Of a stretch of 63,557 nt of DNA, positions 9,220 to 52,594 are shown piece by piece (position 1 is the stretch's first letter; the number at the start of each line of letters is the position of its first letter). The notes under the pieces were generated by a model. The model was not told the origin of the DNA and did not search any database. It worked only from the letters and a program-made list of their open reading frames with translations. A program made the position numbers and the translations under genes. The stretch covers positions 1 through 63,557 of the forward strand of contig QHCE01000055.1 in the NCBI GenBank assembly GCA_003243955.1. The letters are read 5' to 3'. Source of the DNA: Acidimicrobiales bacterium. GTDB taxonomy: Bacteria; Actinomycetota; Actinomycetes; Mycobacteriales; QHCE01.

Positions 9220-9257
9220 CGACACCAGTTGTATCTAATTGAAAGGAAGTATTATTT

Positions 9258-31982: not shown

Positions 31983-32615
31983 TCATCCGCCATTTTGTTT
32001 GGCGCTTGGACTTGCGCTGGGGGTCACCGGGCTGCCGTTTGGCTGCACAGTTACGCTGGGAACTGGCGGTTCGTGCTGGTTGCCCTGCTTGCTCCGCCCG
32101 ATGAGATAGCCAATCACTCCGATGACGGCGGTGAGGGCCAGAATTACCACTAAGGCAATAAACGCACCTTTGATATCAGGACGCTTCCACGAGGCGCCCT
32201 TGGCCAACGGTGGAATTTTGCGGTGCACTCGCACTCGACCCGAGTTTTGCTTCTCGACATTCACACGCGTCCCGGTCGGAAGGAAGTCCAGTGCTGGCAC
32301 CGTGATTTTAAGCTGCTCCGGCCCATGATCGCTGACGTAGGTGATGCGAGTGTCGTAGCGCTTGGCTAGTACGCCATCAGAATTGGGCTGCCAGAGCGAA
32401 ATTGCCGCCGTGACCTTACCCGGATACAGCGCGAAGCGGCTTTGCTCTACCGCGGTTGTTTCTGCCGAGCGCTCGTCGGCAGCAATACTGGGCTCCGTCA
32501 TGCCGCGGGAGAGCGGAATCGACGGAAGTTCATCGATGTCGTCAATGCTGACGTCTGGCATTTTTGGGTAGCGCTTGCGCACCCGTCTCGGGCTGGTCAT
32601 TGCGGTCACCGCCAA
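31983..32615 (-). CDS. Hypothetical protein with one C-terminal TM
   Basis: 210 aa; hydrophobic AFIALVVILALTAVIGVIGYLI segment. Confidence 0.6.
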   Translation of the reverse strand: MAVTAMTSPRRVRKRYPKMPDVSIDDIDELPSIPLSRGMTEPSIAADERSAETTAVEQSRFALYPGKVTAAISLWQPNSDGVLAKRYDTRITYVSDHGPEQLKITVPALDFLPTGTRVNVEKQNSGRVRVHRKIPPLAKGASWKRPDIKGAFIALVVILALTAVIGVIGYLIGRSKQGNQHEPPVPSVTVQPNGSPVTPSASPSAKQNGG

Positions 32616-32686: not shown

Positions 32687-32748
32687 GGCATTTTCCGGGA
32701 AAACGCTGGTTGAAAAACAAAATTCATGACGTTTTCCCGGAAAACGCC
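32687..32748. repeat. Paired 21-bp palindrome doublet D
   Basis: ggcattttc-cgg-gaaaacgct (32687-32707) + 20 bp + gacgttttc-ccg-gaaaacgcc (32728-32748). Confidence 0.85.
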
Positions 32749-32785
32749 CCCATTTTGGGCAACCACGTGCAGTAATCTTTTTCTT

Positions 32786-33742
32786 ATGGTGTCAGATCCC
32801 CCCGTCGATCAACCCGCGCCCAATCCAGCTGCGGTGCCTCCTGTGCCTCCTGTGGAGTCGCCCCTGGAGGTGGAAACCGCTTTTCTCACGTCTCCCACTG
32901 ACGCGGCTCTGGAAGATCAACGGGAGCGGCTACGGCTGCTGATGGACCGTGGTGCGCTGGTCGTGTTGCTCGTTGCCGCGATCACGTTTTTCGCCGCGGT
33001 GATCAATTCGCTACGGGGCAACTTTCAGTTCACGCACTGGATCTTCCCCGTCGTGGCAGTGCTGATGGGGGTTGGGCTATATTTCGGGGCCGAGCGCATG
33101 GCTAGCCGCCCAGACCACGCGGTTGAAGTTCCCGCTGACCTGGCGTCGGTGCTCAACGATTTAACGATCGCGCGAGGTGAGGTCATTGCTACCGCGCCGC
33201 GAGTGCTTAACCCCGATGAACTCACCCAGGTGCTCAGCGATACGCAAGAGCGACACACGGCTGCTTTCAGCGCGGCCCAGGAAACGCTAAAGGCTCTTCG
33301 TGCTGGGGATATAGAGCGCGCATCGGCTTTGGGAACCGAGGTGTACCGCCACACCGATATTATTGAGCACATACGGGACGATCTACAGGGGGAATGGGAA
33401 GCATCTACGCCGATACCCGAAGGTTACATCGGTGATGTGGAAGCGCCTGAAGTAAGTGGGTCACGAAGGTCTGGCCTCGCAGAGCCGGGCTATTTTGCGG
33501 CGCCCGTACAGCCAACAGAGCCGGGCTACCCGGCTAGTTACCCTGTAGAGCCGAGCTCGCCCGTGCAGCCTCCGCCGTCGGGCTATTCCACTGCGCCTGT
33601 ACAGCCGGGTTATGACGCTGCAATCCCCGCGGCGGAGGCGAGTAGGGCGTTTTGGTCTCGTCCCGATTCGACTCAGAATCCCAGTGCGGCTCCTCGGCCG
33701 GATGAGGGCCGATCGGGCAGATCTTCTGGGCCGGTGGATTGA
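32786..33742 (+). CDS. Hypothetical 2-TM membrane protein with helical domain and Pro-rich tail
   Basis: Two hydrophobic segments then helical region; co-oriented with the T4SS genes. Confidence 0.65.
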   Translation: MVSDPPVDQPAPNPAAVPPVPPVESPLEVETAFLTSPTDAALEDQRERLRLLMDRGALVVLLVAAITFFAAVINSLRGNFQFTHWIFPVVAVLMGVGLYFGAERMASRPDHAVEVPADLASVLNDLTIARGEVIATAPRVLNPDELTQVLSDTQERHTAAFSAAQETLKALRAGDIERASALGTEVYRHTDIIEHIRDDLQGEWEASTPIPEGYIGDVEAPEVSGSRRSGLAEPGYFAAPVQPTEPGYPASYPVEPSSPVQPPPSGYSTAPVQPGYDAAIPAAEASRAFWSRPDSTQNPSAAPRPDEGRSGRSSGPVD

Positions 33743-33905
33743 TCTAGTACTACCCGTTTCGTGTAGTTTTACTCGGTATTCTGGTTTTGCGTTAGTAATA
33801 GACGTTCAGCGGAGCTTCTCGGCTGTCGCCGGCGGCGCATAATTGGATTAGGCAGCCTAGGTGGGCGTCGGCTCAGTACCATGCACCGCGAAGGGGGTGG
33901 CGCGC

Positions 33906-35540
33906 GTGAGTGCTAACAACAGCGGCAACCGGCAGCAGAATCAGCCTGGCACGGCTGGCTGGATGCCATCCGCGCCGCCCGCATATCGCGGTCCAGCTCA
34001 GCTGAGCCCACCGCACTCAGGACAAAGTAGCCCCATGCCGGTTTCTGGCCGCCCGGTATCCGGCCCAACCCAGTACGGCCGTCCGACCAGCGCTCCGGCA
34101 GGTCCACCAGGGAGGCAGGGTGCTCCCGCTAGCGTTCCCCCCGGCTATGCGCCATCTACTAGCGGCTTTCCGGGCAGCTACGGTCCTCAGGGCTCCCCAA
34201 CCCATCCGGGTGCGCCTGGCATGTTCGCCCCACAGCAGAACCGGTATCCAGAGCCTGGAACAATTGAACAACTGCCCGGAGGAAAAAACAAGAAAAAGAA
34301 GCGGTCGCTGTGGGACGCTTTTATGGGCGACCTGGGCAAGAACAAACGTAACCAGGGCCGCAAATCACGTTCACGCTCACCCGAAAGCCCCTCGCCGTTG
34401 GCGGCATACGGCAGCCTGGATCACCGCCTCGGGATGTCTGAAGGCGTGTTGCAGCAGCAACCGCCAGGCTTTCGGGTAGAAGACGGCGTAGTCGTTCCCG
34501 ATGATGCTCGACTGAAAAAAGCTCGTCGTCGTGGTCCGGGCATGGGCGGCGGGCGCTGGCAACGCTTTGCTTTCCTCACCGCGATGCTGCTAGCGATGGC
34601 GCTGTTGATGGCACTCGGGGTGGCCCGTTTGGTGGCCGGCGCTCCCACGAACGACGCAAAGCTTTCGGCGGGAACGAACTTTCCGAGCGAAGGCGCCGCC
34701 GGATACGTCGAGCGGTTTACCAAGATTTTCTTTAGCTGGAATGAAGGAGACCCACCGCCACGGCAGAACGCACTCGCAACCTATTTTCCAGCGGCTGGTC
34801 AGACCAACTACGGCTGGAACACCAAAGGTCATCAAGAGGTATCTGATATGCCGGTGACGCTGCACATCGATGTGGAAAACGACCATCGGGCGGTGATTAC
34901 CACTGGCGCGTCGGTGGTAATGAACCCGGGTAATCCGAAGCCAGACGTGAGATTTTTGTGCTCGGCTACCTCGGTGTATGCGGCAAATAAAGACTCATAT
35001 GCCATCGACTCGTACCCGGCATTGGTGGCCTGTCCACCGCCGGCCGCGGTAAACGTGAAGCAGGATCAGCCCGACCTGGATAGCAGCGCAGCCGCCGCTG
35101 AAATCAAAAACATAGTCGAAAAATTCTTTACAGCATACGCGACAAACGACTCGGGCACATTCGACCTCGTGCTCGACCAAGGAGCCAATGTTACCGCTGG
35201 TTTAAACGGGGATCGCAAGATTGACGGAAAGCCAACGGTGCGGGTGGTCAAACCCGCCGAGGGCGCGGATGCTTCGCTGCGTGAGGTTCGCGTTCAGGTC
35301 AATTGGCTGCAAACAGAGGGCGGTTCAAGCTCAAGCCTGTCGGAGTATGCCATCACCGCCAAGCTGGTAGGTGGCAGCTGGAAGATTGCTAAGTTGCGCC
35401 CCGCTCTGCCCTCGGCGGATCTGCAGCCTGAGACGAGTGCTGAGCAACGAAAGCAGCTTCAGAACAATGCTCCTGGTTCCACCGGTGCCAATAGCGGCCA
35501 ATCTGCTACGTCGAGCGGTCGAGCTAACGGCGGTCCTTAG
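33906..35540 (+). CDS. TcpC/ConB (VirB8-like) conjugal transfer protein
   Basis: Pro/Gly-rich N-terminus, one TM, two repeated domains beginning YVERFTKIFFSW and IVEKFFTAYA; position before tcpE/virB4. Confidence 0.7.
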   Translation: MSANNSGNRQQNQPGTAGWMPSAPPAYRGPAQLSPPHSGQSSPMPVSGRPVSGPTQYGRPTSAPAGPPGRQGAPASVPPGYAPSTSGFPGSYGPQGSPTHPGAPGMFAPQQNRYPEPGTIEQLPGGKNKKKKRSLWDAFMGDLGKNKRNQGRKSRSRSPESPSPLAAYGSLDHRLGMSEGVLQQQPPGFRVEDGVVVPDDARLKKARRRGPGMGGGRWQRFAFLTAMLLAMALLMALGVARLVAGAPTNDAKLSAGTNFPSEGAAGYVERFTKIFFSWNEGDPPPRQNALATYFPAAGQTNYGWNTKGHQEVSDMPVTLHIDVENDHRAVITTGASVVMNPGNPKPDVRFLCSATSVYAANKDSYAIDSYPALVACPPPAAVNVKQDQPDLDSSAAAAEIKNIVEKFFTAYATNDSGTFDLVLDQGANVTAGLNGDRKIDGKPTVRVVKPAEGADASLREVRVQVNWLQTEGGSSSSLSEYAITAKLVGGSWKIAKLRPALPSADLQPETSAEQRKQLQNNAPGSTGANSGQSATSSGRANGGP

Positions 35541-35633: not shown

Positions 35634-35918
35634 ATGATTCACGAGTTTGCCGCACAGGTTGTGGCCACCCACGGCGCTGACGTGCTGTACCTGGCTACAG
35701 ATGGCAATAAAATTGCAGGTGGCGTCAGGGATTTCATCGCGCCGCTTGCCGCGATCATCATCGGAGTGATGGGGATCCGATATTTAATTGGTGACCAGCG
35801 CTCTATGGCCGGATTCATCGGATTCCTGCTACTGGGCATCATTGTGTATGCGTTCATCAAGTACGGCAAGGAAATTCTTGACTCCTTCAGCCAGCTTTTA
35901 CAGGGTTGGCTCGCCTAA
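35634..35918 (+). CDS. Small 2-TM protein (TcpD/ConC positional equivalent; possibly pilin-like)
   Basis: 94 aa, AAGGAG RBS, two hydrophobic helices, between tcpC and tcpE. Confidence 0.65.
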   Translation: MIHEFAAQVVATHGADVLYLATDGNKIAGGVRDFIAPLAAIIIGVMGIRYLIGDQRSMAGFIGFLLLGIIVYAFIKYGKEILDSFSQLLQGWLA

Positions 35919-35970: not shown

Positions 35971-36414
35971 ATGCTGGTCCGGACTTTTACCAGTACCTGG
36001 AACCTGCGTACCAAAATCTATGCGTTTGAAGATGTCAAGGTTCCGATCAAGGGTGGCATCACTGTGCCGCAAATCCTTGCCGGCCTTGGTGTGGCCATGG
36101 TCTGGATCCCGCTCTGCCTAATCATTCAGATGCCCTCATGGATTCCCAATCCCGGCATTCTGGTCGGAATTATGGGAGTTCCGCCGGTGCTTGCGCTGCT
36201 GAAAGCTGATACGCCAGTAGCGCATGAGAAAACCACGGAAGAGTGGCTCACTTCCTGGCTTACCCGCCAGAGCGAACCGCGCCGAGTAGGGGCACTAGGG
36301 GTGGTTCCCAAAGGCCACAAAGTGCTCTTAACCGCCACGCATTGGGTGCCCCGTTGGGGTCGCGATGAGTGGCTTCGATCCACAGCGCGTTTCCAGGAAA
36401 GAGGTAGCGGCTAA
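35971..36414 (+). CDS. TcpE/ConD (VirB3-like) membrane protein
   Basis: RTFTSTWNLRTKIYAFEDVKVP..ITVPQ N-terminus, 2 TM, coupled to virB4. Confidence 0.78.
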   Translation: MLVRTFTSTWNLRTKIYAFEDVKVPIKGGITVPQILAGLGVAMVWIPLCLIIQMPSWIPNPGILVGIMGVPPVLALLKADTPVAHEKTTEEWLTSWLTRQSEPRRVGALGVVPKGHKVLLTATHWVPRWGRDEWLRSTARFQERGSG

Positions 36415-39584: not shown

Positions 39585-39590
39585 CCGACC

Positions 39591-41720
39591 ATGACGGCCG
39601 CCGTGCACCATAGACGGTTGGCGAGAAGCGAGCTTTGCGTTGTCTCCGCCAGCGGCACCTCAGCCGCGTTTGTTGCGGAACTTTCCCGCCAGGCCGAGCT
39701 TTCCGCGCACCGGGTTCGGTTGGTCGCCGCTACATCAGGACCAAGTTGGCGGCGAGTGCTGATTAAGGTGGTGTGGCCTATATCGCCACGGTCCAAATCT
39801 AGATCAGCCTACCGCGGTCTACGGCTACCGGGGGTTGTTGCGTTGTTGCTCGGGGTGCTGCTTTCGGCGTATTTCCTAAATGCGGGCAGCGTTTCCGAAC
39901 ACTCGAATAAGCTTGTCGGAGGCTCATCCCTAGCCGCAGCGGGTTGCCCATTCATTCCACTGCCGGATACAGCTCCGAATCCCTTTGGGGACAACATAGA
40001 TCTCAAGCCATTTAAGCAGAGTTTGAATAACTTCTGCGATGCGCTCGGGAACTTTGCCAAAAATCTAAAAGATCACATACCCCAAGGCATTAAAGATGGC
40101 TTGAAATCGGCGTTCAATCAAAATCGATTCTGCTTTTCTTCCCGAGTGGCTCTAAGCCCAGAAGATCCGAATCAAGGGCTCAATAGCTTGATGACCCGGG
40201 GAGTCGGATTCTTGTTTGGATCGGACAAGGGTAACAGTACTTCTCCAACCACATGGAACCAGTACGGTACCGCGGGGGCTACGTGGAATACATATTTTCT
40301 GGACTGTTGGAATAGTGGCGGAAATGAAACCGTCAACTACGCGGCAAATTTCATATTTGATGTATCAAAAGTATTTTCTGTGATTGCTATTTTGCTGTTT
40401 CAGGAGACTTTTAACAATCAGATTGTTGATTATTTTTTCGTGGCGCATAATGGTGCTCCGCAGTCTCCGATAGATACCATACTTCAGCAACTCAATGTTG
40501 GTATCTATGTGAACTTCTTCGCTGTCGCGGTGGTCCTTGGCGCACTCATACTGCTGTACAACAACGTGCTCCGCGGTAATGGTCTCTCCGACGCGCTAGG
40601 CAAGATCGGAATCATGGTTGCCGTAGCGGCTTTTGCCGCGGTGTTCGTCTCACAGGGCAGTAGCTACGTACAGAAAGCAAATGCCTATACCAATGAGGTG
40701 GGGGCATCAGTGCTGTCCGCGCTGACTGGCACTAGCTGCACGGACTCTGCTGGCAAAGCCATTACGACCACACCTTACGACTGCGCCGCACAGACCATGT
40801 ATGACGCTTTGGTGTTTCGTCCGTGGGCCAGCGGATACATCGGGGAATTGGAAGTACTGAACAATCCTCGCGAGACGCAGGCCCGGCGTGCGCTAGCCAT
40901 GAAGATGCTGCAGCAAAACGCCTACTCTTCGGAAGAAAGTGCTGAGATTGCACGTACGGGTACCTCGGCGCAACGGTTCATTGACGCAAAGCAGCAGAAC
41001 CGAAAGGACATGGTTCTTGGCTGGGGGGCGAGATTCATTGCCAAAGATGGCCAGCCCGCGACTACCGCATCCGATCCAAACTCTAAATTCGACCCCAACT
41101 CGTGGCGACCATACAGCCACGTGGAGACCGATCGACCCGAATATTGGAATCTCTGGAGCGGTGGAGCGGCTAATCAGCAGATGGTTGTGGCTACGCTGGC
41201 GCTCATCGCAAGTTTTGCGATGGGTACAGTACTTATCACGCTGACGGCGGCCTATTTAGTACTGCAGCTGCTGACCGTGTTGTTGGCGATAGTCGCACCG
41301 ATCATCTTTCTTATTGGGTTGGTCCCCAAATTTGGTCTTCCCGTTGTACTGCATTGGGGTGAGACCTTTATGCAGCTGTTTTTGAAACGGATAGCCCTAG
41401 TGGTCTTCGTCGGTGTGCTGTTGGCGATGTTGCACATTGTTTTCGCGCTAGCGTTGCCGTGGTGGATGCAGCTGATCCTGGTACTCGGCGTAGCTATAGC
41501 GGGCCGGGGGCACCGGCGTCAGTTTACTAATTGGGCATCCTCCGGTATGCGCGGTATGGGAAACGTCGCCGAAATCGGAACTGGCGGGGTGCGGGGCATA
41601 ATGCATACTCGTAGATCACTGAAACAGGCCCGGCAAGGTTGGCGGTCGTCGGACGGTCTCGCACTGAATGAACGGGTCGGGGTAGCCGGCCGCTCCGGAT
41701 ACGCGGGATTTGATCGCTGA
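39591..41720 (+). CDS. VirB6/ConG/TcpH-like polytopic membrane protein, paralogue 1
   Basis: Multiple TM clusters around a large loop; shares TTWxxYGxAGxxWxTYFLxC and PWAxG motifs with paralogues. Confidence 0.72.
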   Translation: MTAAVHHRRLARSELCVVSASGTSAAFVAELSRQAELSAHRVRLVAATSGPSWRRVLIKVVWPISPRSKSRSAYRGLRLPGVVALLLGVLLSAYFLNAGSVSEHSNKLVGGSSLAAAGCPFIPLPDTAPNPFGDNIDLKPFKQSLNNFCDALGNFAKNLKDHIPQGIKDGLKSAFNQNRFCFSSRVALSPEDPNQGLNSLMTRGVGFLFGSDKGNSTSPTTWNQYGTAGATWNTYFLDCWNSGGNETVNYAANFIFDVSKVFSVIAILLFQETFNNQIVDYFFVAHNGAPQSPIDTILQQLNVGIYVNFFAVAVVLGALILLYNNVLRGNGLSDALGKIGIMVAVAAFAAVFVSQGSSYVQKANAYTNEVGASVLSALTGTSCTDSAGKAITTTPYDCAAQTMYDALVFRPWASGYIGELEVLNNPRETQARRALAMKMLQQNAYSSEESAEIARTGTSAQRFIDAKQQNRKDMVLGWGARFIAKDGQPATTASDPNSKFDPNSWRPYSHVETDRPEYWNLWSGGAANQQMVVATLALIASFAMGTVLITLTAAYLVLQLLTVLLAIVAPIIFLIGLVPKFGLPVVLHWGETFMQLFLKRIALVVFVGVLLAMLHIVFALALPWWMQLILVLGVAIAGRGHRRQFTNWASSGMRGMGNVAEIGTGGVRGIMHTRRSLKQARQGWRSSDGLALNERVGVAGRSGYAGFDR

Positions 41721-41874
41721 TGAGACCTACAATTACCGCAAACAGCGCGGATGGACCGCGGAACTACGCCTATGCTGGTGTTATTGCACCACGGCTGTAC
41801 GGCGAACCCGGCACCTCTGGGGGAGCAACCCGGCATGCAGCGGGGCACGTGTATCACGAGCGATCGGACACCTG

Positions 41875-44304
41875 ATGAGCCAGTACCTATCGCCAAGTCC
41901 TGTCGGGACTACCCCCGCGCATGCTCGTCGAACGCCTGCGCTACGGGTATGTACGCCTGTCGGCACAAACGCGGATTTTATCGCCGAGCTACACTCCGAT
42001 TGCACGGTGATGCAGGCATCAGGTGGGGTGTCGTGGTTGCGCCGAGCGGCGCGCTGGCTGCTACCCACGCTTGGGCGGCGAGCCAAGTCAGCCGTTGTGC
42101 TGGTCGCGATAGTCCTGGCCGTGCTGCTAGGTAATTTCAGTGTGCTGCCACGCCACAATGATCCAGTAGGTGCCGCATCGGTGGCGGTCGCCTTCCCTAT
42201 CGAGTGTGGTCCGCTGAAGTTTGCTTGCGATGAGCTCGATGCCATAGTTAGCTCTATTGGAACGTTTATCGCCGATGGGCTACGGGGAATTGTTGATAGC
42301 GCGATCAGTCCCAACAGTTGGTGTAATCGCATCACTATGGCGCCGGAGAGGCCCGACACCGGCTGGAGCGGAAGTATTCTTTCGGCGGCCCGAAGCAAAA
42401 GTCAATTTTTCGAGAGCTACAACACCGACGCCGGTACCACCTGGTCTAGGTATGGTGCCGCTGGGACAACATGGAATACCTATTTTTTGGATTGTCTCTC
42501 GGCTGGAAATATCGCAAACTTTGCCGCTAATGCTGTTTTCGATTTTGCCAAGCTCGTTTCGGTTCTCGCCATAGTAATATTTCAGCAGACGTTCAATAGT
42601 GGACTGCTCAATATCTTTTTGGGCGGAGACCCGCCTCCTGTACAGCAGATAATCGATAGCCTAAACCTGCAAATTTATGCAAACCTCGCCGCGCTGGCTA
42701 TTGTAATCGGTGCGCTCATACTTGCCTACCGCGCAATTCTCCGGGGTTTTGGTATGGCGGACTTTTTAAGCAAGTTCCTGGTTATGGTCGCAGTTTCTGC
42801 ATTTGCGGTGCTATTTTTCCACAACGCTATTCCCTGGATTCGGTGGGGTAACCAGCAAGTAAATGACATTACTAACAGCGTGATGACCGCGCTTCGCGGC
42901 AGTGAATGCACCAATGCTGAAGGTAAACCAATACAGCTGAAACCCGTGGATTGTACGGCCGAAAGCGTATACAACACACTGGTGTATACACCGTGGGCCA
43001 ACGGTGAGGTTGGGTCGCTCAGTTCGACGAATGGCCAGGGCAATACCGCAGACGACAAGCGCAAACTCGCCGCACGGATCTTGGATCAGCAAGCTTTCAC
43101 CTGGGCTGATGTTAAGGGAGTGGACACTGAGATCATCGGCCAAAGGGTGAAATCAACGGAGGGTCCCATCACTGGCGCTCGTGTGGACTCAGGGCTGATA
43201 GATAAGGCCAAAGCTAAAGTCGCGGATCGTGACAAAATGGTTAAAGATGATTGGGGTCTGGTCATTCGAGATGACAAAGGTAAAGAAACCCCGTTTAATC
43301 CCGAAGGCATAGAGGGCTACTCCCAGGCCCATCCCACCAAACAAAGTGAGACCGTGTGGTCCATGTGGTCGGGAGGCAAAGGCGGCGAGCGCTTCGGTAT
43401 AGCGGTGCTGGCCGTTGTTGGTGCCTGGGCGTTTGGTGGAATGCTGATCGCTATCGCTTTTACCTATTTGGTGCTACAGATCGCTACGGTGTTGTACGCG
43501 CTCGTCTCGCCTCTCGCCTTCTTGGCCGGGTTAGTACCGGTGTATGGCACGCGAGTGTTCTTGGCTGTAGCGGAGGGATTTTTAGGCACATTCATCAAAC
43601 GGGTCGCTATGGCAGTGTTCGTCGCGCTACTCCTCACGTTGTATCAGGTGATTCTGGGCGCTGAGGGGGTTCCGTGGTGGCTACAGATGGTGTTGATTCT
43701 AGCCATTGCCGGAGGCGGTGCTAGTTATCGCAAGAAACTGACTTCGCTGTCTACGTTGGGATTTGGCGGCGGCGGCGGTGGAGGAGGCGGTGGTGGCTTG
43801 GGTTCATCGGCGGCCAGAGCATCCGCTATGCGAAGCACGTGGCAAACCGCTCGTGATCTGGCCATTATCGACCGGGTAGCCGCCGCCACTCGCGCTGGGG
43901 CCAATCCTGGCTCGGGTGGCAGCGGTGTTCGATCGGGCGGCTTAGTGAATCACGGCTCCTCTGAGCGTATTTTGCCACGCGATCAGCAAGCGGCGGCTCG
44001 CAACGCCGCCCGTTCCGGCAGGCAGCGAAATTACACGCCGGGGTCACGCCCGGATGGCCGGACGTCGGGCCGATATCCCGTAAACGGTTCAGGTCCAGGA
44101 GGGACCCGGGCGGTGAACGCGTCACCCAGAGCATTGAATCGAGGGAACGTTTACAACGCGCGGCAACAGCATGCCCAGCCGCAACACGCTTCACCGCAAC
44201 AGCATGCCCAGCCGCAACATTCCCAACCGCAGCCACAATCACTACCTCCGGGTCGACAGCCGCGCCCGGATCGGCCACCGGGGAAGGGCATGGGTAATGG
44301 TTAG
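41875..44304 (+). CDS. VirB6/ConG/TcpH-like polytopic membrane protein, paralogue 2
   Basis: Same motifs; poly-Gly and Gln/Pro-rich tail. Start uncertain (ORF open from 41710). Confidence 0.72.
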   Translation: MSQYLSPSPVGTTPAHARRTPALRVCTPVGTNADFIAELHSDCTVMQASGGVSWLRRAARWLLPTLGRRAKSAVVLVAIVLAVLLGNFSVLPRHNDPVGAASVAVAFPIECGPLKFACDELDAIVSSIGTFIADGLRGIVDSAISPNSWCNRITMAPERPDTGWSGSILSAARSKSQFFESYNTDAGTTWSRYGAAGTTWNTYFLDCLSAGNIANFAANAVFDFAKLVSVLAIVIFQQTFNSGLLNIFLGGDPPPVQQIIDSLNLQIYANLAALAIVIGALILAYRAILRGFGMADFLSKFLVMVAVSAFAVLFFHNAIPWIRWGNQQVNDITNSVMTALRGSECTNAEGKPIQLKPVDCTAESVYNTLVYTPWANGEVGSLSSTNGQGNTADDKRKLAARILDQQAFTWADVKGVDTEIIGQRVKSTEGPITGARVDSGLIDKAKAKVADRDKMVKDDWGLVIRDDKGKETPFNPEGIEGYSQAHPTKQSETVWSMWSGGKGGERFGIAVLAVVGAWAFGGMLIAIAFTYLVLQIATVLYALVSPLAFLAGLVPVYGTRVFLAVAEGFLGTFIKRVAMAVFVALLLTLYQVILGAEGVPWWLQMVLILAIAGGGASYRKKLTSLSTLGFGGGGGGGGGGGLGSSAARASAMRSTWQTARDLAIIDRVAAATRAGANPGSGGSGVRSGGLVNHGSSERILPRDQQAAARNAARSGRQRNYTPGSRPDGRTSGRYPVNGSGPGGTRAVNASPRALNRGNVYNARQQHAQPQHASPQQHAQPQHSQPQPQSLPPGRQPRPDRPPGKGMGNG

Positions 44305-45982
44305 AGACGGTGAGCAAATAACCGGACCTAGCCCACACCACGATCGGTCCTCTCGAGCTGTGCGTGGCGCGCGGCGGCGTCGCCTTGTCATGGAGCTGCC
44401 TCGGCAGCTATCCACCCGAGCCCTACGTGGAGTGCGGTCGGCGCTGCGCGCAGCGGTTCGAAACGTATGGCGCGGTATCGCTGGTGCGGGTCCGGCGGCG
44501 ATGGCTGCGCTGCGGCGCAGTGTTGCGACTCAGCGCACTATTCGTCCGGAGCCGATCGGTCCGCGTAAACGTAACCTGCGCCGGATTTACTCCATCGCGC
44601 TGCTGGGTGTGGCGGCCCTGATTGTGGTAGCGCGGATCAATAATGCCCAAGGCTTTTCTACGGCGTTTTTCATAGCGCTACTGCTGGGTTTGATTTTCAT
44701 TGCCTGGACGGGGTATCGCAGTGCGTTGGCCACGGCGGCTGCGATCGGGTGGTGGCTGATCACAACACCGCTGATCTCACTAGCCGCCGCCTCAGGTCTT
44801 CCGGTGCAAGAGGTTTTGGTGCGCGCCGCTACCTCAAACGAAGCCGTTATCGGTACCGGTATCGCGGTGTGGGTCTGCGCGGTGCTCATGCGGGCACGCC
44901 GCAGCTGGATCACCATTCTCGGGTGTTGGTTCTTAAATGTGGCGGCGATTTTAGCCACAGGCGCCCTTGCGCCACGCCTCGCGCTTGCCGGGGGCTGGCT
45001 GGCTATAGCCCTGTACTTGGGGTGGCGAGCCGGATGGCTGCTGACCGCCTATGATCGGCTCAACGGCCGAGCTCGAATGGGCCGCGTTTTCCAGGTGGCT
45101 ACCGAGGAACAGTACGAGGTCTATGGCCACCTGGCGGAGCTTGGCAACGGCTTTGTCCGCCGATATCAGCTGGCCGTGCCCGACGAATATAACCCAGCCA
45201 CAACATTGGACGCACTAGTTGTGGGACCTACGGGGCTGTTTCAGATCACCGCGGTGGACGGTTTAGGCCGGATCGTGGTGAACACCAGCGAACGACGCCG
45301 GGTCACGGTAGAGGGCGCTTCCATTGATGCTGAACTCACCGATATTGCCCGTACGGCGCAGGCGTTGGCCCGTGCGCTGCGGGTGGAAGTTGTGCCGCTA
45401 GTCGCCATGTGCGGTTCAACATTTCCCGAAGGCAACCACGGCCTGATCTCAATCGCGATAACGCTTCCGCCGCCACAAGCCACAGACGGCCGCGAAACCA
45501 AAGCCGATCTGATTCCGTTGACGCTGATTGACGCGGAGCTATTGGCTCGTCGGATCGCTTTTGGTTCGGCGGTGTACACCACTGGGCAGGTGCAGCGCAT
45601 CATTCACCGCGTGGGCACTGTGCTCTGGCCGGCCGCCGGTGCTGCTGATCGACGCATCACTCGCCGGCGCCGGGGCACTAAGCGAGATACTTTCGCCCCG
45701 GGTGTCGAGGTGGAATGGGTCGATGAGTCAGGCATTTGGTCCGGATGGGTATGTGTTTCTCGGGTGACCGTACTAGATGAGGTCCCTAAAGGTCCGCTCG
45801 CGAGTACGCTTTCAGTAAAAGACAAAGTGGTCTGGATCGTGGCAAAGGCAGAATGGGATCGAGCGCGCAGCGTTGGCAGTGATCCAAGCCCCGAGCTAGT
45901 GCAACCAGTGGCATCTAGTGCGCTTCGGTTAGCTACGCCTAATAAGCATCAGACATCTCCGGCAGAGGACGGCGCATCGTGA
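44297..45982 (+). CDS. Multi-TM membrane protein with degenerate NERD-like domain
   Basis: ~6 TM, then TLDALVVGPTGLFQITAV..GRI resembling NERD IDHxxxGPxGxFxIETK; overlaps both neighbours. Confidence 0.6.
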   Translation: MVRDGEQITGPSPHHDRSSRAVRGARRRRLVMELPRQLSTRALRGVRSALRAAVRNVWRGIAGAGPAAMAALRRSVATQRTIRPEPIGPRKRNLRRIYSIALLGVAALIVVARINNAQGFSTAFFIALLLGLIFIAWTGYRSALATAAAIGWWLITTPLISLAAASGLPVQEVLVRAATSNEAVIGTGIAVWVCAVLMRARRSWITILGCWFLNVAAILATGALAPRLALAGGWLAIALYLGWRAGWLLTAYDRLNGRARMGRVFQVATEEQYEVYGHLAELGNGFVRRYQLAVPDEYNPATTLDALVVGPTGLFQITAVDGLGRIVVNTSERRRVTVEGASIDAELTDIARTAQALARALRVEVVPLVAMCGSTFPEGNHGLISIAITLPPPQATDGRETKADLIPLTLIDAELLARRIAFGSAVYTTGQVQRIIHRVGTVLWPAAGAADRRITRRRRGTKRDTFAPGVEVEWVDESGIWSGWVCVSRVTVLDEVPKGPLASTLSVKDKVVWIVAKAEWDRARSVGSDPSPELVQPVASSALRLATPNKHQTSPAEDGAS

Positions 45983-48621
45983 GGCTCACTAACAGCCAGA
46001 ACCTCGGAAACCAGCAGTACGGCGGCGCGGGGTCCGGTATGGACAGCGTCGCGGTCGGAATCATATCGGGTGTCATCCTGGCGGCCATGATTGTGGGATT
46101 CGTACTCAGCCTGTTGTTTTGGTTCTCTGGTCAGCTTTCTGGCCTGATCTGGGGCGGTAACTGGCCGAATGCCGCCCCTAGCGATTCGGTGCGCATCTTC
46201 ATCAAAGCGTTCTCGAATTTGGGGGATCCGGCAGCTGCCTGGCCAGCGCCAGCTCGCGATGACGTGGGCCCAGCCGCTGTGGTGTACATCCTGTTTTTGA
46301 TTCTGGCCGCACCCGTGGCGTGGGGGCTCACTCTTGGTGGTCAGTACGCAATGCGCTTTCGGCGCCGCCGGGAAAACCGTGTATTCCGGCTGGGCTTTGC
46401 CGACGGTGGTGAAATACGTAGACTGCTGTCCTCGCGAGCGGTAATAAAAAAGGCCAAGTCCGTCCGGCCGTCTTATAAGGGCAAGCACAATATCAACCCG
46501 CAAGATGTCGGGTTCTTTTTGGGCAAAGACACTCGTTCGCACCGAAAGCTCTACTGCTCAGTGGAAGACGTCATGCTGGTGGTGGCCCCGCCCCGGCAGG
46601 GTAAAGACGTACATTTTTGCATCCCCAACATCATCGACGCTCCTGGTCCGTGTGTAGCGACCACTACGCGTGCTGACATGTTCGCTGCTACTGTCTCGCT
46701 ACGTGAAAAGGTAGGCCACGTCTGGGTCTTTGACCCTAATGATATGACTAACTGGCCTAGCCAGCTGCGTTGGTCGCCGGTGAATGGTTGTCACGAGCCA
46801 CTGGTGGCGCTGAACCGCGCGGCGGCTTTTGTGGCCGGCGCCGGAGTGGGTGAAGGTGTGCAGAATGCGTCCTACTGGACTGGTGTCGCTACCGCTATTT
46901 TGCGCTGCTATTTCTTGGCCGCGGCTACCTCTGGCCGCACGATCACCGATGTGGTGCGCTGGTCGACCCAGCCCACCAACCCGGAACCCATCCAGATTTT
47001 ACGCAAGCAAGAAACACTTGGCCGGGCGCCGCAAGGCTGGGCGGGTGAGTTAGAGAGCGGGGCTTCGGCCGACGGTGAAACCCGGGGCAACATGTGGGCA
47101 GGTGTCCGACGAGCGCTGGACTGCTTCGCTGATCCACGAGTCTTGGCCGCGTGTTCACCGGGCCCGGGCGATGTGTTCGACGTCGCAACCTTCGTTAAGG
47201 GCCGTAATACCCTGTATGTTTTGGGAAAAGAAAAGAAGAACGGTAGCGTCGCGCCGCTGGTCACAGCGATGATGGAAGACATTTTTGACCAAGTGCGCAG
47301 GATCGCTAGCCGGTTGCCCAACAGCCGCATCGATCCACCGCTTACCGTTGAGCTCAATGAGGTGGCCCATATCGCGCCCATGCCGAACCTGCCGGGCTAC
47401 ATGGGTGACTCCGGTGGTTTCTCGATTGCGCTGCATGTGTACTTGCAGTCGCTGGGGCAGGCGCGCGGCAAGTGGGGCAACGATGAAGCGGCTGTTATGT
47501 GGGACACCGCGGCCATCCGGGTGGTAATGGGTGGTTCGGGTTATGTCAACGACCTTGAGGACATCTCCCGACTGCTCGGTGAGGTAGACGAGAAGACAAA
47601 GAGTGTGTCGACCGGCTCTGGCGGCAGAAGTACGTCCTATAGCAAACAGAAACGGCGTGTACTCACGCTTGATGAGCTACGGACACTGAAATTTGGCACC
47701 GCCGTAGTGATTGCGCGTGCCGCGCGCCCAGTCGAGGCCAAGCTGACCCCATACTTTAAGCGCAAGGACGCTAAAGAAATCTCTGCTGGGCAAGCACGGG
47801 TCGGTAAAGTGATTGCCGCGGAAGAGAATCCGATGAATGCCTTCTCTGGGCTGACGTCGACCGGTTTGTTAACTCCACCCGATAGTAGTGGCGCTGGTGG
47901 AGCGGGTGCGTATTCAGGCAGCGGCGGTGGCGGCAACGGAGGTGGGGGAGGCGGCGGAGCTGGCGTAGCGCTGCCCGCGGCTGCGCTTCCAGCTGGAGCA
48001 GCTTACGGGCATGACGGTTACTCCGCGGCTAACCCTGGTTACGCCAATGCCTCCGCCCAGCAGGGGTTTGTGCAGCAAAGTCCTGCCTGGCAGTCCACCG
48101 CCCCAAGCCAACCTCCGCAGACGTGGGGTGCTCCCGCTGCCGCCACCGCGCCAAGTGTGGAGCCACCACCTCGTGCGGCGTACCAGCTCCCGGGACCATC
48201 GGGTTGGGGCTCTGGTTCGGCACCGGAAACCGCGTATCCAACGGCTCCGCACCCACCAGCGGCGATCCCCGCTGCATACGAGACGCCACTGGATGCCCAG
48301 GCCTATCTGGAGCAGGTCGGCCCACAGCAGCCGGTGCCACCGACGTTCCAGCCCGCTGAGCCTCAATCCCAGAGTGGCACGCTTCCTCAGCTTTACCAAC
48401 CTGGTGCAGTCAGTCAGCCTAGTTACGGACAGTCGTCAAGCTATGACGCTGGTGCCTATAGTGCGCAGATGCCAGGGGCGGCTGTGGCCACCAATGGATA
48501 CGGCGCCGCGAGCCCTCCGCCTGCGGCCACCGCTGAGCAAGAGCGTCCGGCTGGCCCTAAACTTGCCTCAGGTTGGGGACCGGTCCGCGGACCGACCAAG
48601 AGTGACGCTGATCGAGACTGA
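45979..48621 (+). CDS. virD4: VirD4/TraG-like type IV coupling protein
   Basis: Two N-terminal TM, APPRQGKD, VFDP, RIDPPLTVELNE, LQSLGQARGKWG, LEDISRLLGE; long low-complexity tail. Confidence 0.88.
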   Translation: MRLTNSQNLGNQQYGGAGSGMDSVAVGIISGVILAAMIVGFVLSLLFWFSGQLSGLIWGGNWPNAAPSDSVRIFIKAFSNLGDPAAAWPAPARDDVGPAAVVYILFLILAAPVAWGLTLGGQYAMRFRRRRENRVFRLGFADGGEIRRLLSSRAVIKKAKSVRPSYKGKHNINPQDVGFFLGKDTRSHRKLYCSVEDVMLVVAPPRQGKDVHFCIPNIIDAPGPCVATTTRADMFAATVSLREKVGHVWVFDPNDMTNWPSQLRWSPVNGCHEPLVALNRAAAFVAGAGVGEGVQNASYWTGVATAILRCYFLAAATSGRTITDVVRWSTQPTNPEPIQILRKQETLGRAPQGWAGELESGASADGETRGNMWAGVRRALDCFADPRVLAACSPGPGDVFDVATFVKGRNTLYVLGKEKKNGSVAPLVTAMMEDIFDQVRRIASRLPNSRIDPPLTVELNEVAHIAPMPNLPGYMGDSGGFSIALHVYLQSLGQARGKWGNDEAAVMWDTAAIRVVMGGSGYVNDLEDISRLLGEVDEKTKSVSTGSGGRSTSYSKQKRRVLTLDELRTLKFGTAVVIARAARPVEAKLTPYFKRKDAKEISAGQARVGKVIAAEENPMNAFSGLTSTGLLTPPDSSGAGGAGAYSGSGGGGNGGGGGGGAGVALPAAALPAGAAYGHDGYSAANPGYANASAQQGFVQQSPAWQSTAPSQPPQTWGAPAAATAPSVEPPPRAAYQLPGPSGWGSGSAPETAYPTAPHPPAAIPAAYETPLDAQAYLEQVGPQQPVPPTFQPAEPQSQSGTLPQLYQPGAVSQPSYGQSSSYDAGAYSAQMPGAAVATNGYGAASPPPAATAEQERPAGPKLASGWGPVRGPTKSDADRD

Positions 48622-48727
48622 TTCGAAACTCATCAAACGGGGTCCTGATACGAGCAGGGGGCGACATGCACACGTGGAGTAGTGCTTGCCAATCGTCGCT
48701 GTGTTGGGAAGTCGGGGTAGCACCACC

Positions 48728-50941
48728 ATGGCCGACCTAACAGTTATTTCCCGAGGTAGGCAACCGCGTTTGGTGGTTAGCTCACTTAGTGGCATCAATG
48801 CGCAATTTGCTCAGCTGCTGCAGACTAATCCGGCCCCCTTGCAGGCCGGTTCCGGCTACCGCAAACTGCTGCGCAGTGGATTCACCATACTGCGGAGAAA
48901 GCACCGTTGGCGAAAACCAGTCGTAGGCGTCATGCTCGGTGCGTTTGTGGCCACGTTTTTGCTGGGAATGAGCGTATCGCCAGGCGCTGAAGGGCAACGG
49001 GTAGGCGCTATCACGGTTGCACAAGCGGAAGAGGGTGATTGTCTCGCCGACGACTTTAATATTCCCATTCTCCCCGGATTCCTGCAGGGTGTGATCAAAA
49101 AACCGATTAACGCGGTATGTCGAGCCTTTCATGCTGCCGCAAAGCTTATATCGGAATATGTCCTCAATCCCATCGGAAACTTTTTGTGGAGCGCATTTCA
49201 GGCCAATCTGTGTTCGTCGCGTACCAGCATTGATCCTGATGACCCCCAGGCTGGGCTGAGCAGTTTAATGGTGCAAGGCGCGGAAGTTCTGGTGGGTAAG
49301 AATGCTGAATCTCCGGCGCAGACTACCTGGCGAGAATATGGTGTAGCTGGTACTTCATGGGGCACCTACTTCTTGAACTGTACCGATTTTTCTACCCAAA
49401 TACAAAATTACGGTGCAAACTTCGTATTTTCTGTTTCTAAAGTATTTTCGCTCATTGCTATCTTGTTATTTCAGGAGACGTTTAACAGTAAAGTTGTTGA
49501 CTATTTTTTTCTTCCGCAAGGCGGGGCGCCCAAATCGGCTATCGATACCATTGTTAACCAACTCCATTTCGGTCTTTATATGAATATGATGGCTGTCGCT
49601 GTCGTGATCGGTGCCGCTATTATATTGTACAGATCCATCATTCTTAGAGGGGGTTTGGGCGAAGCCCTGAGTAAAATTGGAATCATGGCGCTCGTGGCCG
49701 GTGTAGCGTTGGTGTATGTCAGTCAGGGTTCGCAGATTATTCAGAAAGTTAGCGCCTTTACGGATGAGACGGGTGCAGCGGTACTCGGGGCACTCAGTGC
49801 CGGAGGCTGCAATAACAGTGATGATCGTGCTGTACCAGGTGGTGCGAAGCCATATGAATGCGCCGCGCAAACTATGTACCATGTACTGATTTATATTCCA
49901 TGGGCTAATGGTGAAGTTGGGACCATTGATGTTTTTGGTGATGCCGTCTATAGCCAGCAGCGCAAAGACCTCGCATATCGCATTCTACACCAACAAGCTT
50001 ATGATCGAAAAGAAAGCGGAATAGTTAACAATCCCGCGACCGATGGCGCCGAGCGGTCGAAACAAACTCAAAAGCTTATACAGGCCAAAGAAGACGACCG
50101 GTTCAAGATGGTTAAAGACGACTGGGGAGCGCGGTTTATTGCCAAGGGCGGCAAGCCCGAAGAATTCGCGGTTACCGGCGAAGCCGCGAAGCGCCCCTAT
50201 GAAGACGTAGATGTTGACTACCCAGAATATTGGTTAATGTTCTCGGGAAAAGAGGCTGGGCAGCGTTACATCATCGCAATCATGGCTCTGCTTGCGTCAT
50301 TTTCCTTAGGTCTGGTTCTGATCTCCGTCACGTTCGCGTATCTGGCGCTGCAGCTCATGACGATCGTCCTTGCCATGGTTGCACCAGTGGCCTTCCTAGT
50401 GGGACTGGTGCCAACATACGGGTACCGAATATTCCTCAAGTGGTTTGAGCTTGGCGCCGGGCTGTACATCAAACGACTCGCATTGGTGGTCTTCGTGGGG
50501 ATATTGCTCGGTGGGTTGCAGTTAATCTTCAAAGTACCCGCCCCGTGGTGGCTGCACGTGGTATTCGCTTTCTGTATTGGGTGGTTTGGTCTGGCTTACC
50601 GGCATCAACTCAGTAGTTGGGCCAGTACTGGTATGGAGGGGATGGGTAAGTTCGCGGGCATTGCTACCGGGGGCTTGCTGGGCATGAAAGACGGGGTTAA
50701 ATCCGTCAGATATGCGAAAGCCACCTGGCAGGGTACTCGCGGTTTACCGGCGCGACAGCGAGCTCGGGCGGCTGTGGGTTCGGCATATACCGCGAACCAA
50801 ACCGGCGCCTCACCCGCTCAGTACACTGGTCCGCGGCGCGGAGCCCAAGCAACTGGTGCGGGCAAACCTTTGTCAAAGCGCCAGCAGCGTAAGGCCCAGC
50901 GTCGTTCGTCACGCAACGGCTCCTACACGTATCAGCCCTGA
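48728..50941 (+). CDS. VirB6/ConG/TcpH-like polytopic membrane protein, paralogue 3
   Basis: Most similar by eye to paralogue 1 (SKVFSxIAILLFQETFN in both). Confidence 0.72.
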   Translation: MADLTVISRGRQPRLVVSSLSGINAQFAQLLQTNPAPLQAGSGYRKLLRSGFTILRRKHRWRKPVVGVMLGAFVATFLLGMSVSPGAEGQRVGAITVAQAEEGDCLADDFNIPILPGFLQGVIKKPINAVCRAFHAAAKLISEYVLNPIGNFLWSAFQANLCSSRTSIDPDDPQAGLSSLMVQGAEVLVGKNAESPAQTTWREYGVAGTSWGTYFLNCTDFSTQIQNYGANFVFSVSKVFSLIAILLFQETFNSKVVDYFFLPQGGAPKSAIDTIVNQLHFGLYMNMMAVAVVIGAAIILYRSIILRGGLGEALSKIGIMALVAGVALVYVSQGSQIIQKVSAFTDETGAAVLGALSAGGCNNSDDRAVPGGAKPYECAAQTMYHVLIYIPWANGEVGTIDVFGDAVYSQQRKDLAYRILHQQAYDRKESGIVNNPATDGAERSKQTQKLIQAKEDDRFKMVKDDWGARFIAKGGKPEEFAVTGEAAKRPYEDVDVDYPEYWLMFSGKEAGQRYIIAIMALLASFSLGLVLISVTFAYLALQLMTIVLAMVAPVAFLVGLVPTYGYRIFLKWFELGAGLYIKRLALVVFVGILLGGLQLIFKVPAPWWLHVVFAFCIGWFGLAYRHQLSSWASTGMEGMGKFAGIATGGLLGMKDGVKSVRYAKATWQGTRGLPARQRARAAVGSAYTANQTGASPAQYTGPRRGAQATGAGKPLSKRQQRKAQRRSSRNGSYTYQP

Positions 50942-51004: not shown

Positions 51005-52594
51005 ATGTTCACGGAGGCAGAAACGCTCATGAGTACGCCCGCACCCGTTCTTGTCGTAGATTTTGGTGCGCAGTATGCACAGCTTATTGCTCGACGCGTG
51101 CGTGAGCTTGATGTCTACTCCGAAATCGTGCCGCACACCTTGTCAATGAGTCAGATTGCTGCGCGCAAACCGGCGGCGATTATTCTCTCCGGCGGCCCGG
51201 CATCGGTGTACGCCGACAATGCGCCGCAACTAGATCCAGCGCTGTTTGAGCTCGGAGTGCCGATCTTGGGGATCTGTTACGGATTTCAGGCGATGACTCA
51301 GGCGCTCGGGGGTACGGTAGGGCGCGCCGAGCTTTCCGAGTACGGCCGCACCACGTTGACAGTCGGCACACCTGGCATGTGTTTGGCGCAGCTGCCTAGC
51401 CAACAGTCTGTTTGGATGAGCCACGGCAGCGCGGTCACTGCCGCGCCGCCAGAGTACGTGGTGACCGCTAGTACACCTGGTTCACCGGTTGCCGCATTTG
51501 AGCACACTGGGCGCAAAGCCGCCGGGGTGCAGTTTCATCCTGAGGTCTTGCACACCGAGTACGGCCAGCACATTCTGCGTCGATTTCTCCTTGACCTAGC
51601 CGGTATCGCCCCTAACTGGAGCACCGGCGCGATACTCGATGAGCTAGTTGCCGACATTCGAGCTCAAGTGGGCGATAAGAAAGTTATCTGTGGACTTTCT
51701 GGCGGAGTGGATTCAGCCGTGGCGGCCGCCCTTGTCCAGCGCGCTGTCGGCTCGCAGCTTAACTGCGTGTTTGTTGATCATGGTTTGTTGCGCGCCGGTG
51801 AAGCCGAGCAGGTGGAACGCGACTACGTAGCGGCCACATCGGTGAGCTTGACCGTGGTAGATGCCCGGAAACGTTTTCTTGTCGCACTTGCTGGCGTCAC
51901 AGATCCAGAAGCCAAACGCAAGATCATCGGTCGGGAATTCATTCGGGTTTTTGAAGCGGCCGAGCGTGAGCTGGTGGCGCGGGCGGGTGCCCGCGGGGAA
52001 TCGATCGAGTTCTTGGTACAGGGCACGCTCTATCCTGATGTCGTGGAGTCTGGCGGAGGTAGCGGCACAGCAAATATCAAAAGCCATCACAACGTGGGCG
52101 GTTTGCCGCCAGATCTTCGTTTTTCGCTGATAGAGCCGCTGCGGACGCTATTCAAGGATGAAGTGCGCCAGCTTGGCGTTGCGCTAGGGCTGCCGGAAGC
52201 AATGGTGTGGCGCCAGCCGTTTCCTGGTCCGGGGCTAGCAATTCGAATTGTTGGCGAAGTGACCGCGGACCGTCTGGAAACGCTGCGGGTCGCGGACACT
52301 ATTGCCCGCGAAGAGCTGACAGCCGCTGGCCTGGATCGTGAAATTTGGCAATGTCCGGTTGTATTGCTGGCTGACGTTCGTTCCGTTGGTGTGCAAGGGG
52401 ACGGACGTAGTTACGGCCATCCCATTGTGCTGAGGCCAGTATCCAGCGAAGATGCGATGACCGCGGATTGGACTCGGGTGTCGCATGAGGTTCTGGCCAG
52501 CATTTCGACTCGGATCACCAACGAGGTGTCCGAAGTCAACCGCGTTGTCCTGGATGTGACCAGTAAGCCACCTGGCACTATTGAGTGGGAGTAG
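51005..52594 (+). CDS. guaA: GMP synthase (glutamine-hydrolysing)
   Basis: [39 protein letters not shown]. Confidence 0.98.

Follow-up and report, generated by a model that had tools for sequence, protein, structure and literature searches.

Three VirB6-like genes in one chromosomal island

The DNA considered here is contig QHCE01000055.1 of assembly GCA_003243955.1 from an uncultured actinobacterium catalogued as Acidimicrobiales bacterium, of a family in the Mycobacteriales, a stretch of 63,557 nucleotides (nt) hereafter called the 63.5-kb window, which carries in the core chromosome, between guaB3 and guaA, a 19-kb island encoding components of a type IV secretion system (T4SS), among which three VirB6-like paralogues, designated B6a, B6b and B6c (Table 1). 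The three open reading frames (ORFs) are all intact and all on the forward strand, and the starts of B6b and B6c, at 41875 and 48728, match the alignment starts of the orthologues in the related genome G001. In the following, G000 refers to the genome holding the window, which is 94.8% complete, and G with any other number to genomes of relatives, for which families and genera are coded f and g followed by a number, f1 being the family of G000.

Searching this genome with B6a recovered three places only, i.e., B6a itself (E-value 0), B6c (2.5e-158, 45% identity) and B6b (1.1e-100, 37% identity), and in the three-way alignment B6a is 37% identical to B6b and 43% to B6c; judged by sequence, the three are genuine paralogues. 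An earlier note on this DNA had reported three ORFs sharing motifs and conserved Cys positions, which holds on both counts. Every motif quoted there is invariant in the three-way alignment, namely (i) T220, T221, W222, Y225, G226, A228, G229, W232, T234, Y235, F236, L237 and C239, (ii) A252, N253, F256, K260, S263, A266, I267, F270, Q271, T273, F274 and N275, (iii) C398, A400, Y404, L407, P411, W412, A413 and G415, and (iv) P623, W624 and W625. Five Cys columns are common to the three paralogues, i.e., C149, C181, C239, C383 and C398, and C181 and C239 reach at least 90% conservation over 89 homologues. The further statement that the paralogues differ in the loop and tails stood in part: identity outside the helical cores, i.e., in the N-terminal cytoplasmic part, the ectodomain, the central loop and the tail, is 17-41%, but the two cores differ as well, at 37-55% identity. 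Since one 16,819-nt contig from the assembly of another study spans positions 34593-51100 with 0 differences, the arrangement is not an artefact of binning or assembly.

In the tail of B6b, a poly-Gly run is accompanied by a tandem repeat of 33 nt encoding Gln/Pro/His-rich peptide repeats (43768-43796 and 44163-44228), and its poly-Gly stretch draws unrelated metagenome contigs when sequencing runs are mapped; comparable Gly-rich codon runs occur in the VirD4 gene (47917-47960).

Kinship with the VirB6/TrbL superfamily

Three lines, one of them structural, show that the B6 proteins belong, as distant members, to the VirB6/TrbL superfamily, in keeping with the VirB6/ConG-like identity first proposed in the earlier note. 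In the first instance, all three paralogues are matched in both halves by the NCBIfam model NF046089 (CD3337/EF1877 mobilome membrane protein) at E-values of 2e-16 to 2e-24, with scores of 86.0, 59.9 and 81.0 bits that lie under the curated cut-off of 120 bits; the B6 proteins can be regarded as relatives of this ConG-like family and, by the curators' rule, not as members. The same model scores above its cut-off in a Bacillus subtilis control genome, which carries the integrative and conjugative element (ICE) ICEBs1, with ConG as its VirB6-like protein. Secondly, an exhaustive search with a profile of the three proteins returned 811 representative proteins at E ≤ 1e-3, and Pfam TrbL/VirB6 (PF04610) was found in 14 of the 30 homologues sampled, nine of them above cut-off, the matches lying where these homologues align with the C-terminal helix bundle (residues ~530-655). 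Thirdly, an AlphaFold2 model of B6a, based on 89 homologues (predicted local distance difference test, pLDDT, 79.3; predicted template modelling score, pTM, 0.72), contains long helices at residues 245-379 and 527-657. In an exhaustive structural alignment against 48,161 chains its top match was VirB6/TrwI of R388 (7o3v_F; Z 13.8, root-mean-square deviation 4.8, 254 of 261 residues aligned over model residues 267-657), leading the next row, a designed repeat protein (Z 10.3), by 3.5 Z units, with Legionella DotA at Z 9.4, a Z near 13-14 being within reach of unrelated helical bundles according to the aligner's own warning. The gene context agrees, B6a directly following VirB4 in a block that also includes VirD4 and TcpC/D/E-like genes.

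Hydropathy delineates 7-8 hydrophobic segments per paralogue. The predicted layout comprises, from the N-terminus, an Arg/Lys-rich part, one signal-anchor helix, a Cys-containing ectodomain of ~150 residues, a three-helix core, a loop of ~175 residues (354-530) carrying a conserved Cys pair, a second core ending in PWW, and a basic tail. The near-invariant PW of the B6 proteins may be linked to the 'VQQPW' motif of TcpH.

Several results weigh against the interpretation developed below: (i) none of the three proteins has a direct match in Pfam, TrbL (PF04610) included, even at E ≤ 10; (ii) the two structural searches diverged, the TrwI match of the exhaustive aligner, with the caution attached to its Z score, having no counterpart in Foldseek, which returned no match to the B6a model in the PDB at E ≤ 0.001; and (iii) the topology is ambiguous, as a simple hydropathy count puts the central loop in the cytoplasm. 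The side on which this loop lies depends on whether six or eight helices span the membrane; in Agrobacterium VirB6, the central loop is described as facing out (PMC4027160). As for other searches, the rows obtained in the PDB with the three-protein profile were of the V-ATPase a-subunit only (E 0.3-0.9) and are ascribed to chance, PADLOC and PHROGs gave no match for the B6 proteins, and a word-indexed protein search gave 10 matches for B6a.

Duplication history and divergence of the three copies

In a maximum-likelihood tree of 35 rows, three starred clades were obtained, namely clade a (G000_a, G001_a and four metagenome proteins), clade c (G000_c, G001_c, G003_c and two metagenome proteins) and clade b (G000_b, its 95%-identical metagenome relative P0013, and G001_b, with support 100, P0019 joining at 92). 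Clades a and c group together (support 99), with b next to join them (99); the two copies of G004 form a separate sister clade, and the single-copy proteins of family f8 fall outside all of these. This topology places two duplications after the split of the G004 lineage and before that of the genera of G000, G001 and G003, and each copy has since been kept as an orthologue lineage of its own in at least two genera.

Between G000 and G001, orthologues are 63-80% identical in the B6 cores. Over whole proteins the identity to G001 is 51% for the TcpC-like protein, 57-61% for the B6 proteins and 84% for VirB4, and at 57-61% protein identity synonymous sites are saturated. Against a related strain, nucleotide differences amount to 12.6% in tcpC, 5.8% in B6a/b and 3.4% in the VirB4 region. 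The tcpC-like and B6 genes are those diverging fastest in the island.

The GC content of the B6 genes (0.53-0.57) is lower than that of their neighbours (0.59-0.62), yet the AT-richness does not reside where the earlier note had placed it, i.e., in the loops. The minimum lies instead on the most conserved segment, from W.TYFL.C to FQETFN (about B6a residues 232-301), where GC falls to 0.37-0.41 and GC at third codon positions (GC3) to 0.34-0.46 in 50-codon windows, and GC3 to 0.34-0.45 in 40-codon windows. In 40-codon windows the variable loops of B6a and B6b have an ordinary GC3 (0.57-0.70 and 0.47-0.70, respectively), and GC3 is low at the loop start in B6c only (0.38). The dip occupies one common aligned position in all three paralogues of G000 and is absent from the orthologues of G001, G003, G004 and G028 (GC3 0.66-0.87). 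Amino-acid composition was rejected as its cause, because the codons that 24 other genes of the window use for each amino acid predict a GC3 of 0.64-0.65, against 0.39-0.46 observed. Recent gene conversion was rejected too, third-codon identity at identical residues being 41-49%, i.e., at chance level, and is further disfavoured by a 226-nt repeat between B6a and B6c that is only 70% identical.

Copy number in other Actinomycetota

Among 400 other Actinomycetota genomes searched with NF046089, with all candidates scored, 13 gave a match (E ≤ 1e-5), each as a single ORF. Likewise, the three-protein profile found a match in 18 of 300 genomes of the class, each with one ORF (three candidates scored per genome), and all 14 genomes of family f21 are among these single-ORF genomes. 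Multi-copy VirB6 is not routine in the Actinomycetota searched, and the earlier suggestion that it is unusual is borne out in 13 of 13 and 18 of 18 other genomes; the closest plasmid locus, from Nocardiopsis, likewise has one VirB6-like ORF. The literature searches brought up no monoderm bacterium in which VirB6 multiplication is described.

In f21, the VirB6-like ORF encodes ~770-890 amino acids (aa) and is adjoined by VirB4 (40% identity) in G558 and G572 (loci L025, 109-8511, and L026/L027), and in G558 by a TcpC-like gene as well; neither VirD4 nor gua genes were found nearby in these two genomes. The best named relatives are Nocardiopsis and Nonomuraea records, and these actinomycetes seem to possess a further T4SS-like locus conserved in the chromosome.

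G000 has a fourth VirB6-like gene, a very distant one, on another contig, C30 (5802-7946, minus strand), which hhalign matches to the 89-sequence alignment with a probability of 99.6% (E 1.1e-24). This locus (L030, 3930-11337), flanked by hisG and rib genes, also comprises a second VirB4-like gene (7943-10984, 27-29% identical), an M23 peptidase and an LPXTG protein. Matches to VirB4 of 28-30% identity occur in many families of the order, e.g., in 12 of 12 genomes of f14.

Other genes of the island and of the window

The genes of the island and its borders are listed in Table 1, together with the dips described above. From o338 through guaA (32726-52594) all genes are co-directional. B6a starts 6 nt after the VirB4 stop codon, B6a and B6b are separated by 154 nt and VirD4 and B6c by 106 nt, and B6b/o603 and o603/VirD4 overlap by 8 and 4 nt, respectively. 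Compared with shuffled sequence, promoter-like sites number 4 against 9.0 expected and terminator-like sites 19 against 19.0. These short gaps and overlaps, with no excess of promoters or terminators, point to co-transcription, and the three B6 genes are likely co-expressed.

Table 1. Genes of the island and its borders, and base-composition features of the B6 genes, in coordinates of the window.
Feature	Position	Strand	Basis
guaB3-like IMP dehydrogenase (IMPDH) paralogue, left island border	30847..31968	+	Pfam IMPDH 3.3e-28
o210, small protein, one C-terminal hydrophobic helix, no family	31983..32615	-	
o338, membrane protein, no family	32726..33742	+	
TcpC-like (VirB8-type) cell-wall-spanning subunit	33861..35540	+	Pfam TpcC 3.1e-12, 47.2 bits, above cut-off
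TcpD-like small membrane protein, weak	35634..35918	+	NCBIfam TcpD_dom E 9.8e-4, below cut-off
TcpE-like (VirB3-type) small membrane protein, weak	35971..36414	+	Pfam TcpE E 2.7e-4, below cut-off
VirB4-type ATPase, 1,056 aa	36414..39584	+	Pfam AAA_10 8e-49; NCBIfam TcpF 1e-58, far below cut-off; orthologues 69-87% identical in f1 and f8
B6a, VirB6-like paralogue a, 709 aa	39591..41720	+	alignment, profile match, model
AT-rich synonymous-site dip in B6a, conserved core	40284..40493	+	GC3 0.39 vs 0.65 expected
B6b, VirB6-like paralogue b, 809 aa, long Gly- and Gln/Pro-rich tail	41875..44304	+	
Homologous AT-rich dip in B6b	42472..42681	+	GC3 0.46 vs 0.65 expected
o603, polytopic membrane protein, weak NERD-like middle, conserved C-terminal domain	44297..45982	+	
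VirD4-type coupling protein	45979..48621	+	Pfam T4SS-DNA_transf 5.3e-29, TraG-D_C 4.2e-21
B6c, VirB6-like paralogue c, 737 aa	48728..50941	+	
Homologous AT-rich dip in B6c	49358..49567	+	GC3 0.44 vs 0.64 expected
guaA, right island border	51005..52594	+	Pfam GATase 5.6e-45, GMP_synt_C 1.1e-37

The VirD4 protein matches PF02534, PF12696 and NCBIfam CD1115, and the TcpE-like protein is 82% identical to its G001 counterpart. As for o603, whose most probable start, 44297, derives from an Atlas record, Pfam NERD (nuclease-related) is matched at E 0.23 and Atlas features reach 0.88 with 190 shared, which is a lead only. The protein has a conserved C-terminal domain of ~90 residues, always adjoins VirD4 and is present in two copies in G028; its places outside the window are L020 (5577-7421) and L021 (34-1449). 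Its AlphaFold2 model, from an 11-row alignment, is too poor for a structure search (pLDDT 52, pTM 0.31), and the word-indexed search gave 7 matches. The protein is a candidate DNA-processing or substrate-docking component. PADLOC and PHROGs gave no match for o603, o210 or TcpC, and a single row proposing o338 as TmtA (E 0.0048) is attributed to chance. With Pfam and NCBIfam, no VirB7-VirB11 scaffold of the diderm type was found in the island, only monoderm-type components, and no cell-wall hydrolase gene is among its genes.

The rest of the window consists of housekeeping genes, namely glmS, acpS, alr, tsaB/D, an ECF sigma factor gene, DUF5319, guaB, pssA, psd, a RelA/SpoT-type gene and purK/purE. 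Between glmS and acpS lies a pair encoding a Phd/YefM-like antitoxin and a PIN-domain toxin (19319-20031). A copper-handling cluster (7444-12716), with a CopC-CopD fusion, a DUF1775 (YcnI-like) gene, a small ORF and a P-type ATPase, has an ECF sigma factor gene (6190-6774) upstream.

Distribution of the island among relatives

Several studies have yielded near-identical DNA, in runs labelled as soil or sediment metagenome, and several such runs contain strains diverged by a few percent; only two close related loci were found. A search with B6a matched 8 of 60 genomes, i.e., G000, the four other genomes of f1, two of four in f8 and, weakly, one of three in f15. With VirB4, orthologues (58-87% identity) were found among 300 genomes of the order only in f1 (4/4 others) and in genus g25 of f8 (2/2), the remaining matches being at ~24-30% identity. 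A common gene order after guaB/guaB3 was observed by tblastn in G001, G002, G004 and G028, and guaA follows the block immediately in G002, G003 and G004; the island sits at the same site in 5/5 genomes of f1 and 2/2 of g25. The distance between guaB3 and guaA is 36.5 kb in G028, 656 bp in G011 and 397 bp in G044 (the last two from the other f8 genus, without the island), 3.2 kb in G005 (family f2) and 2.1 kb in G010 (a genome flagged unpublished). Such sharp differences in spacing indicate that the block is either an insertion or a segment repeatedly deleted at one site.

The identity of VirB4 to G028 (74%) is comparable to that of guaB (73%), guaB3 (70%) and guaA (76%), and the VirB4 tree joins (G000, G001), G004 and G028 in a short-branched polytomy. 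This divergence fits a long vertical residence, and would also be compatible with an ancient transfer between f1 and f8.

Within f1, G002 (L018, 13043-19890; L019, 238-4778) has VirB4 in three frames, VirD4 in two and stop codons in both VirB6-like genes, with guaB, guaB3 and guaA intact; evidently, to go by these lesions, the system is dispensable and decaying in that lineage. Copy number thus varies within the family, G002 having two decayed copies and G004 one in the island and one elsewhere, the latter (contig C32; L016, 6864-11533) outside the gua island, after smpB, in the order o210-like (minus strand), o338-like, VirB6-like and TcpC-like. This order suggests that o210 and o338 travel with the VirB6-like gene as a module. 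In the island, o210 is kept at the same position in G001, G002 and G004, and o338 is conserved in G001, G002, G004, G028 and G059.

Comparison with known systems

With VirB6 of Agrobacterium and TrwI of R388 (7o3v), the B6 proteins have in common to be polytopic helical membrane proteins encoded beside VirB4. They differ in being 2-3 times longer (709-809 aa), with an added N-terminal cytoplasmic segment, signal-anchor helix, Cys-containing ectodomain and long tail, and in belonging to a monoderm host without VirB5 or VirB7-10. The likeness to the family of NF046089, with ConG (ICEBs1) and TcpH (pCW3) as named relatives, rests for the B6 proteins on this profile, and extends to neighbours resembling TcpC, TcpD, TcpE and TcpF; of this pCW3 set, TcpC is above cut-off and TcpD, TcpE and TcpF are all below theirs. 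Unlike the island, systems of the ConG/TcpH type have one copy and reside on mobile elements with a relaxase (PMC4027160). The mating-pair formation (MPF) type FA uses, according to the same source, a TcpA-type coupling protein, and that of the island is VirD4-type. The combination of Tcp-like parts with a VirD4-type coupling protein is not a clean MPF-FA system, and the setting implied in the earlier note, i.e., an MPF-FA element or ordinary ICE, is not supported on this point or on mobility and residence (see below).

Several diverged VirB6 genes, partly in tandem, in a chromosomal T4SS lacking a relaxase are otherwise known from the rvh system of the Rickettsiales, for which 3-5 VirB6 paralogues are reported (Anaplasma, Ehrlichia, Rickettsia; PMC7648143, PMC12857230). 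There, however, the machine is a diderm MPF-T system of obligate intracellular hosts, with very large VirB6 extensions, up to 4,322 aa (PMC7648143), in contrast to a monoderm Tcp-like machine with modest tails in an actinobacterium from soil or sediment, 2.4 Mb in size. The resemblance goes no further than VirB6 multiplication and the missing relaxase. Chromosomal, mostly relaxase-less genes of the monoderm type, with a proposed co-option, are also reported in Patescibacteria, but in another phylum and VirB4 clade and with an expansion of VirB2-like pilins, not of VirB6 (PMC12102498). Finally, and more loosely, the Streptomyces operon cmdABCDEF (SCO4126-4131) is likewise chromosomally conserved and encodes a VirB4-related ATPase and membrane proteins; it is non-conjugative, with a developmental phenotype, and differs in that the ATPase domain of CmdB spans residues 44-427, against a VirB4 of 1,056 aa here, and in that no VirB6 multiplication is reported there (PMC2782261).

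Possible roles of the three VirB6-like proteins

It is tentatively proposed, with a confidence that stays short of even, that the three anciently duplicated VirB6-superfamily genes, likely co-expressed, provide a differentiated and probably hetero-oligomeric platform. Such a platform would serve a single VirB4/VirD4 motor, where the conserved transmembrane cores would hold the VirB6 position around the translocation path, the VirB6 assembly of R388 lying under the stalk (7o3v). The divergent N-terminal ectodomain, central loop and tails would give each copy a distinct contact, i.e., with the cell wall or target surface outside and with the ATPases or substrate inside, and the machine would move something other than the island's own DNA. 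While the absence of a relaxase and an integrase argues against self-transfer, the VirD4-type coupling protein and the NERD-like o603 keep DNA in play as a substrate. A hetero-oligomer is favoured because the same trio was co-retained across genera in one transcription-like unit, and by analogy with the VirB6 paralogues of Ehrlichia, described as co-expressed and interacting in a reference quoted in PMC12857230. The complex prediction for B6a (216-660) with B6c (209-657), run without controls, scored 0.00 and speaks neither for nor against binding. A more specific version, in which a monoderm conjugation-type machine, domesticated, fixed and relaxase-less, has independently evolved a hetero-oligomeric VirB6 platform of the Rickettsiales style, whose ectodomains and tails set cargo and target, is possible and at the same time doubtful.

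To the objections raised above, three are to be added here. Firstly, copy number varies within f1, which implies that the trio is not required by the machine itself. Secondly, the empty site in nearby relatives leaves open an old mobile-element origin. Thirdly, a relaxase of an unrecognised family may be present, e.g., o603.

The nearest rival, itself rather doubtful, is that the paralogues are interchangeable subunits, each forming its own homomeric channel with shared ATPases and offering alternative target, exclusion or substrate specificities. The concentration of divergence in ectodomain, loop and tails would be expected from it, as would the fast evolution of the B6 and tcpC-like genes and the differing copy number among family members; in addition, VirB6-type proteins are donor-side partners in entry exclusion in other systems, as illustrated by the VirB6-Eex and TraY-ExcA interactions (PMC4027160). 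It accords poorly, however, with three orthologue lineages stably kept in at least two genera without turnover, and with a single co-directional block in which no separate promoter or terminator signal rises above shuffle expectation.

That the island is an old ICE, maybe still mobilised in trans, with a chance duplication of VirB6 and conjugation through an unrecognised relaxase (o603 being the candidate), is unlikely. The adjacency of guaB3 and guaA in G011 and G044, from the same family as the island-bearing G028, the TraG-D_C domain of the VirD4-type coupling protein and the weak NERD-like signals in o603 are in its favour, and Guglielmini et al. (PMC4027160) hold that relaxases of Actinobacteria are probably missed. 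Yet the hallmarks of an ICE are wanting: neither the ORFs of the window scanned with Pfam (18 + 29) nor the 18 ORFs of the G028 island include an integrase, a recombinase or a member of a known relaxase family; no relaxase family of Pfam or NCBIfam matches an island protein, and TrwC, Relaxase, Rep_trans and MobA_MobL have 0 matches in the whole G000 genome (94.8% complete). The island contains no tRNA or Rfam family, and none of the 20 repeat families shown, out of 50 found, pairs its two borders. Against 72,556 plasmids, moreover, B6c has two weak matches only, both in Nocardiopsis (28% identity), the best VirB4 matches there being at 40% identity, so that the B6 lineage is nearly absent from plasmids. 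The occupation of one chromosomal site in two families, with VirB4 about as diverged as the flanking gua genes, is a further departure from the ICE setting.

Least probable of all is that the copies are redundant duplicates drifting to loss without distinct roles, for which the stops and frameshifts of G002 in the VirB6-like genes, VirB4 and VirD4 and the lowered GC3 of the three G000 genes might be invoked, but all three are intact in G000 and G001, their orthologue cores are 63-80% identical with invariant motifs, and in G002 the whole system decays, the extra copies not being singled out.

Significance

VirB6 is the least understood core part of T4SSs, and in monoderm bacteria knowledge of it is, as far as we are aware, close to nil. 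As this island shows, VirB6 multiplication is not confined to obligate intracellular Proteobacteria, and the few domesticated-looking T4SSs of the monoderm type, such as those of Patescibacteria and the cmd operon of Streptomyces, are joined by another. Should the domesticated machine with a hetero-oligomeric VirB6 platform be confirmed, it would be the first such case in Actinomycetota. As a triplicated and long-retained set with conserved cores and divergent exposed parts, the three B6 proteins may offer a system for separating the regions of VirB6 devoted to assembly from those devoted to specificity.

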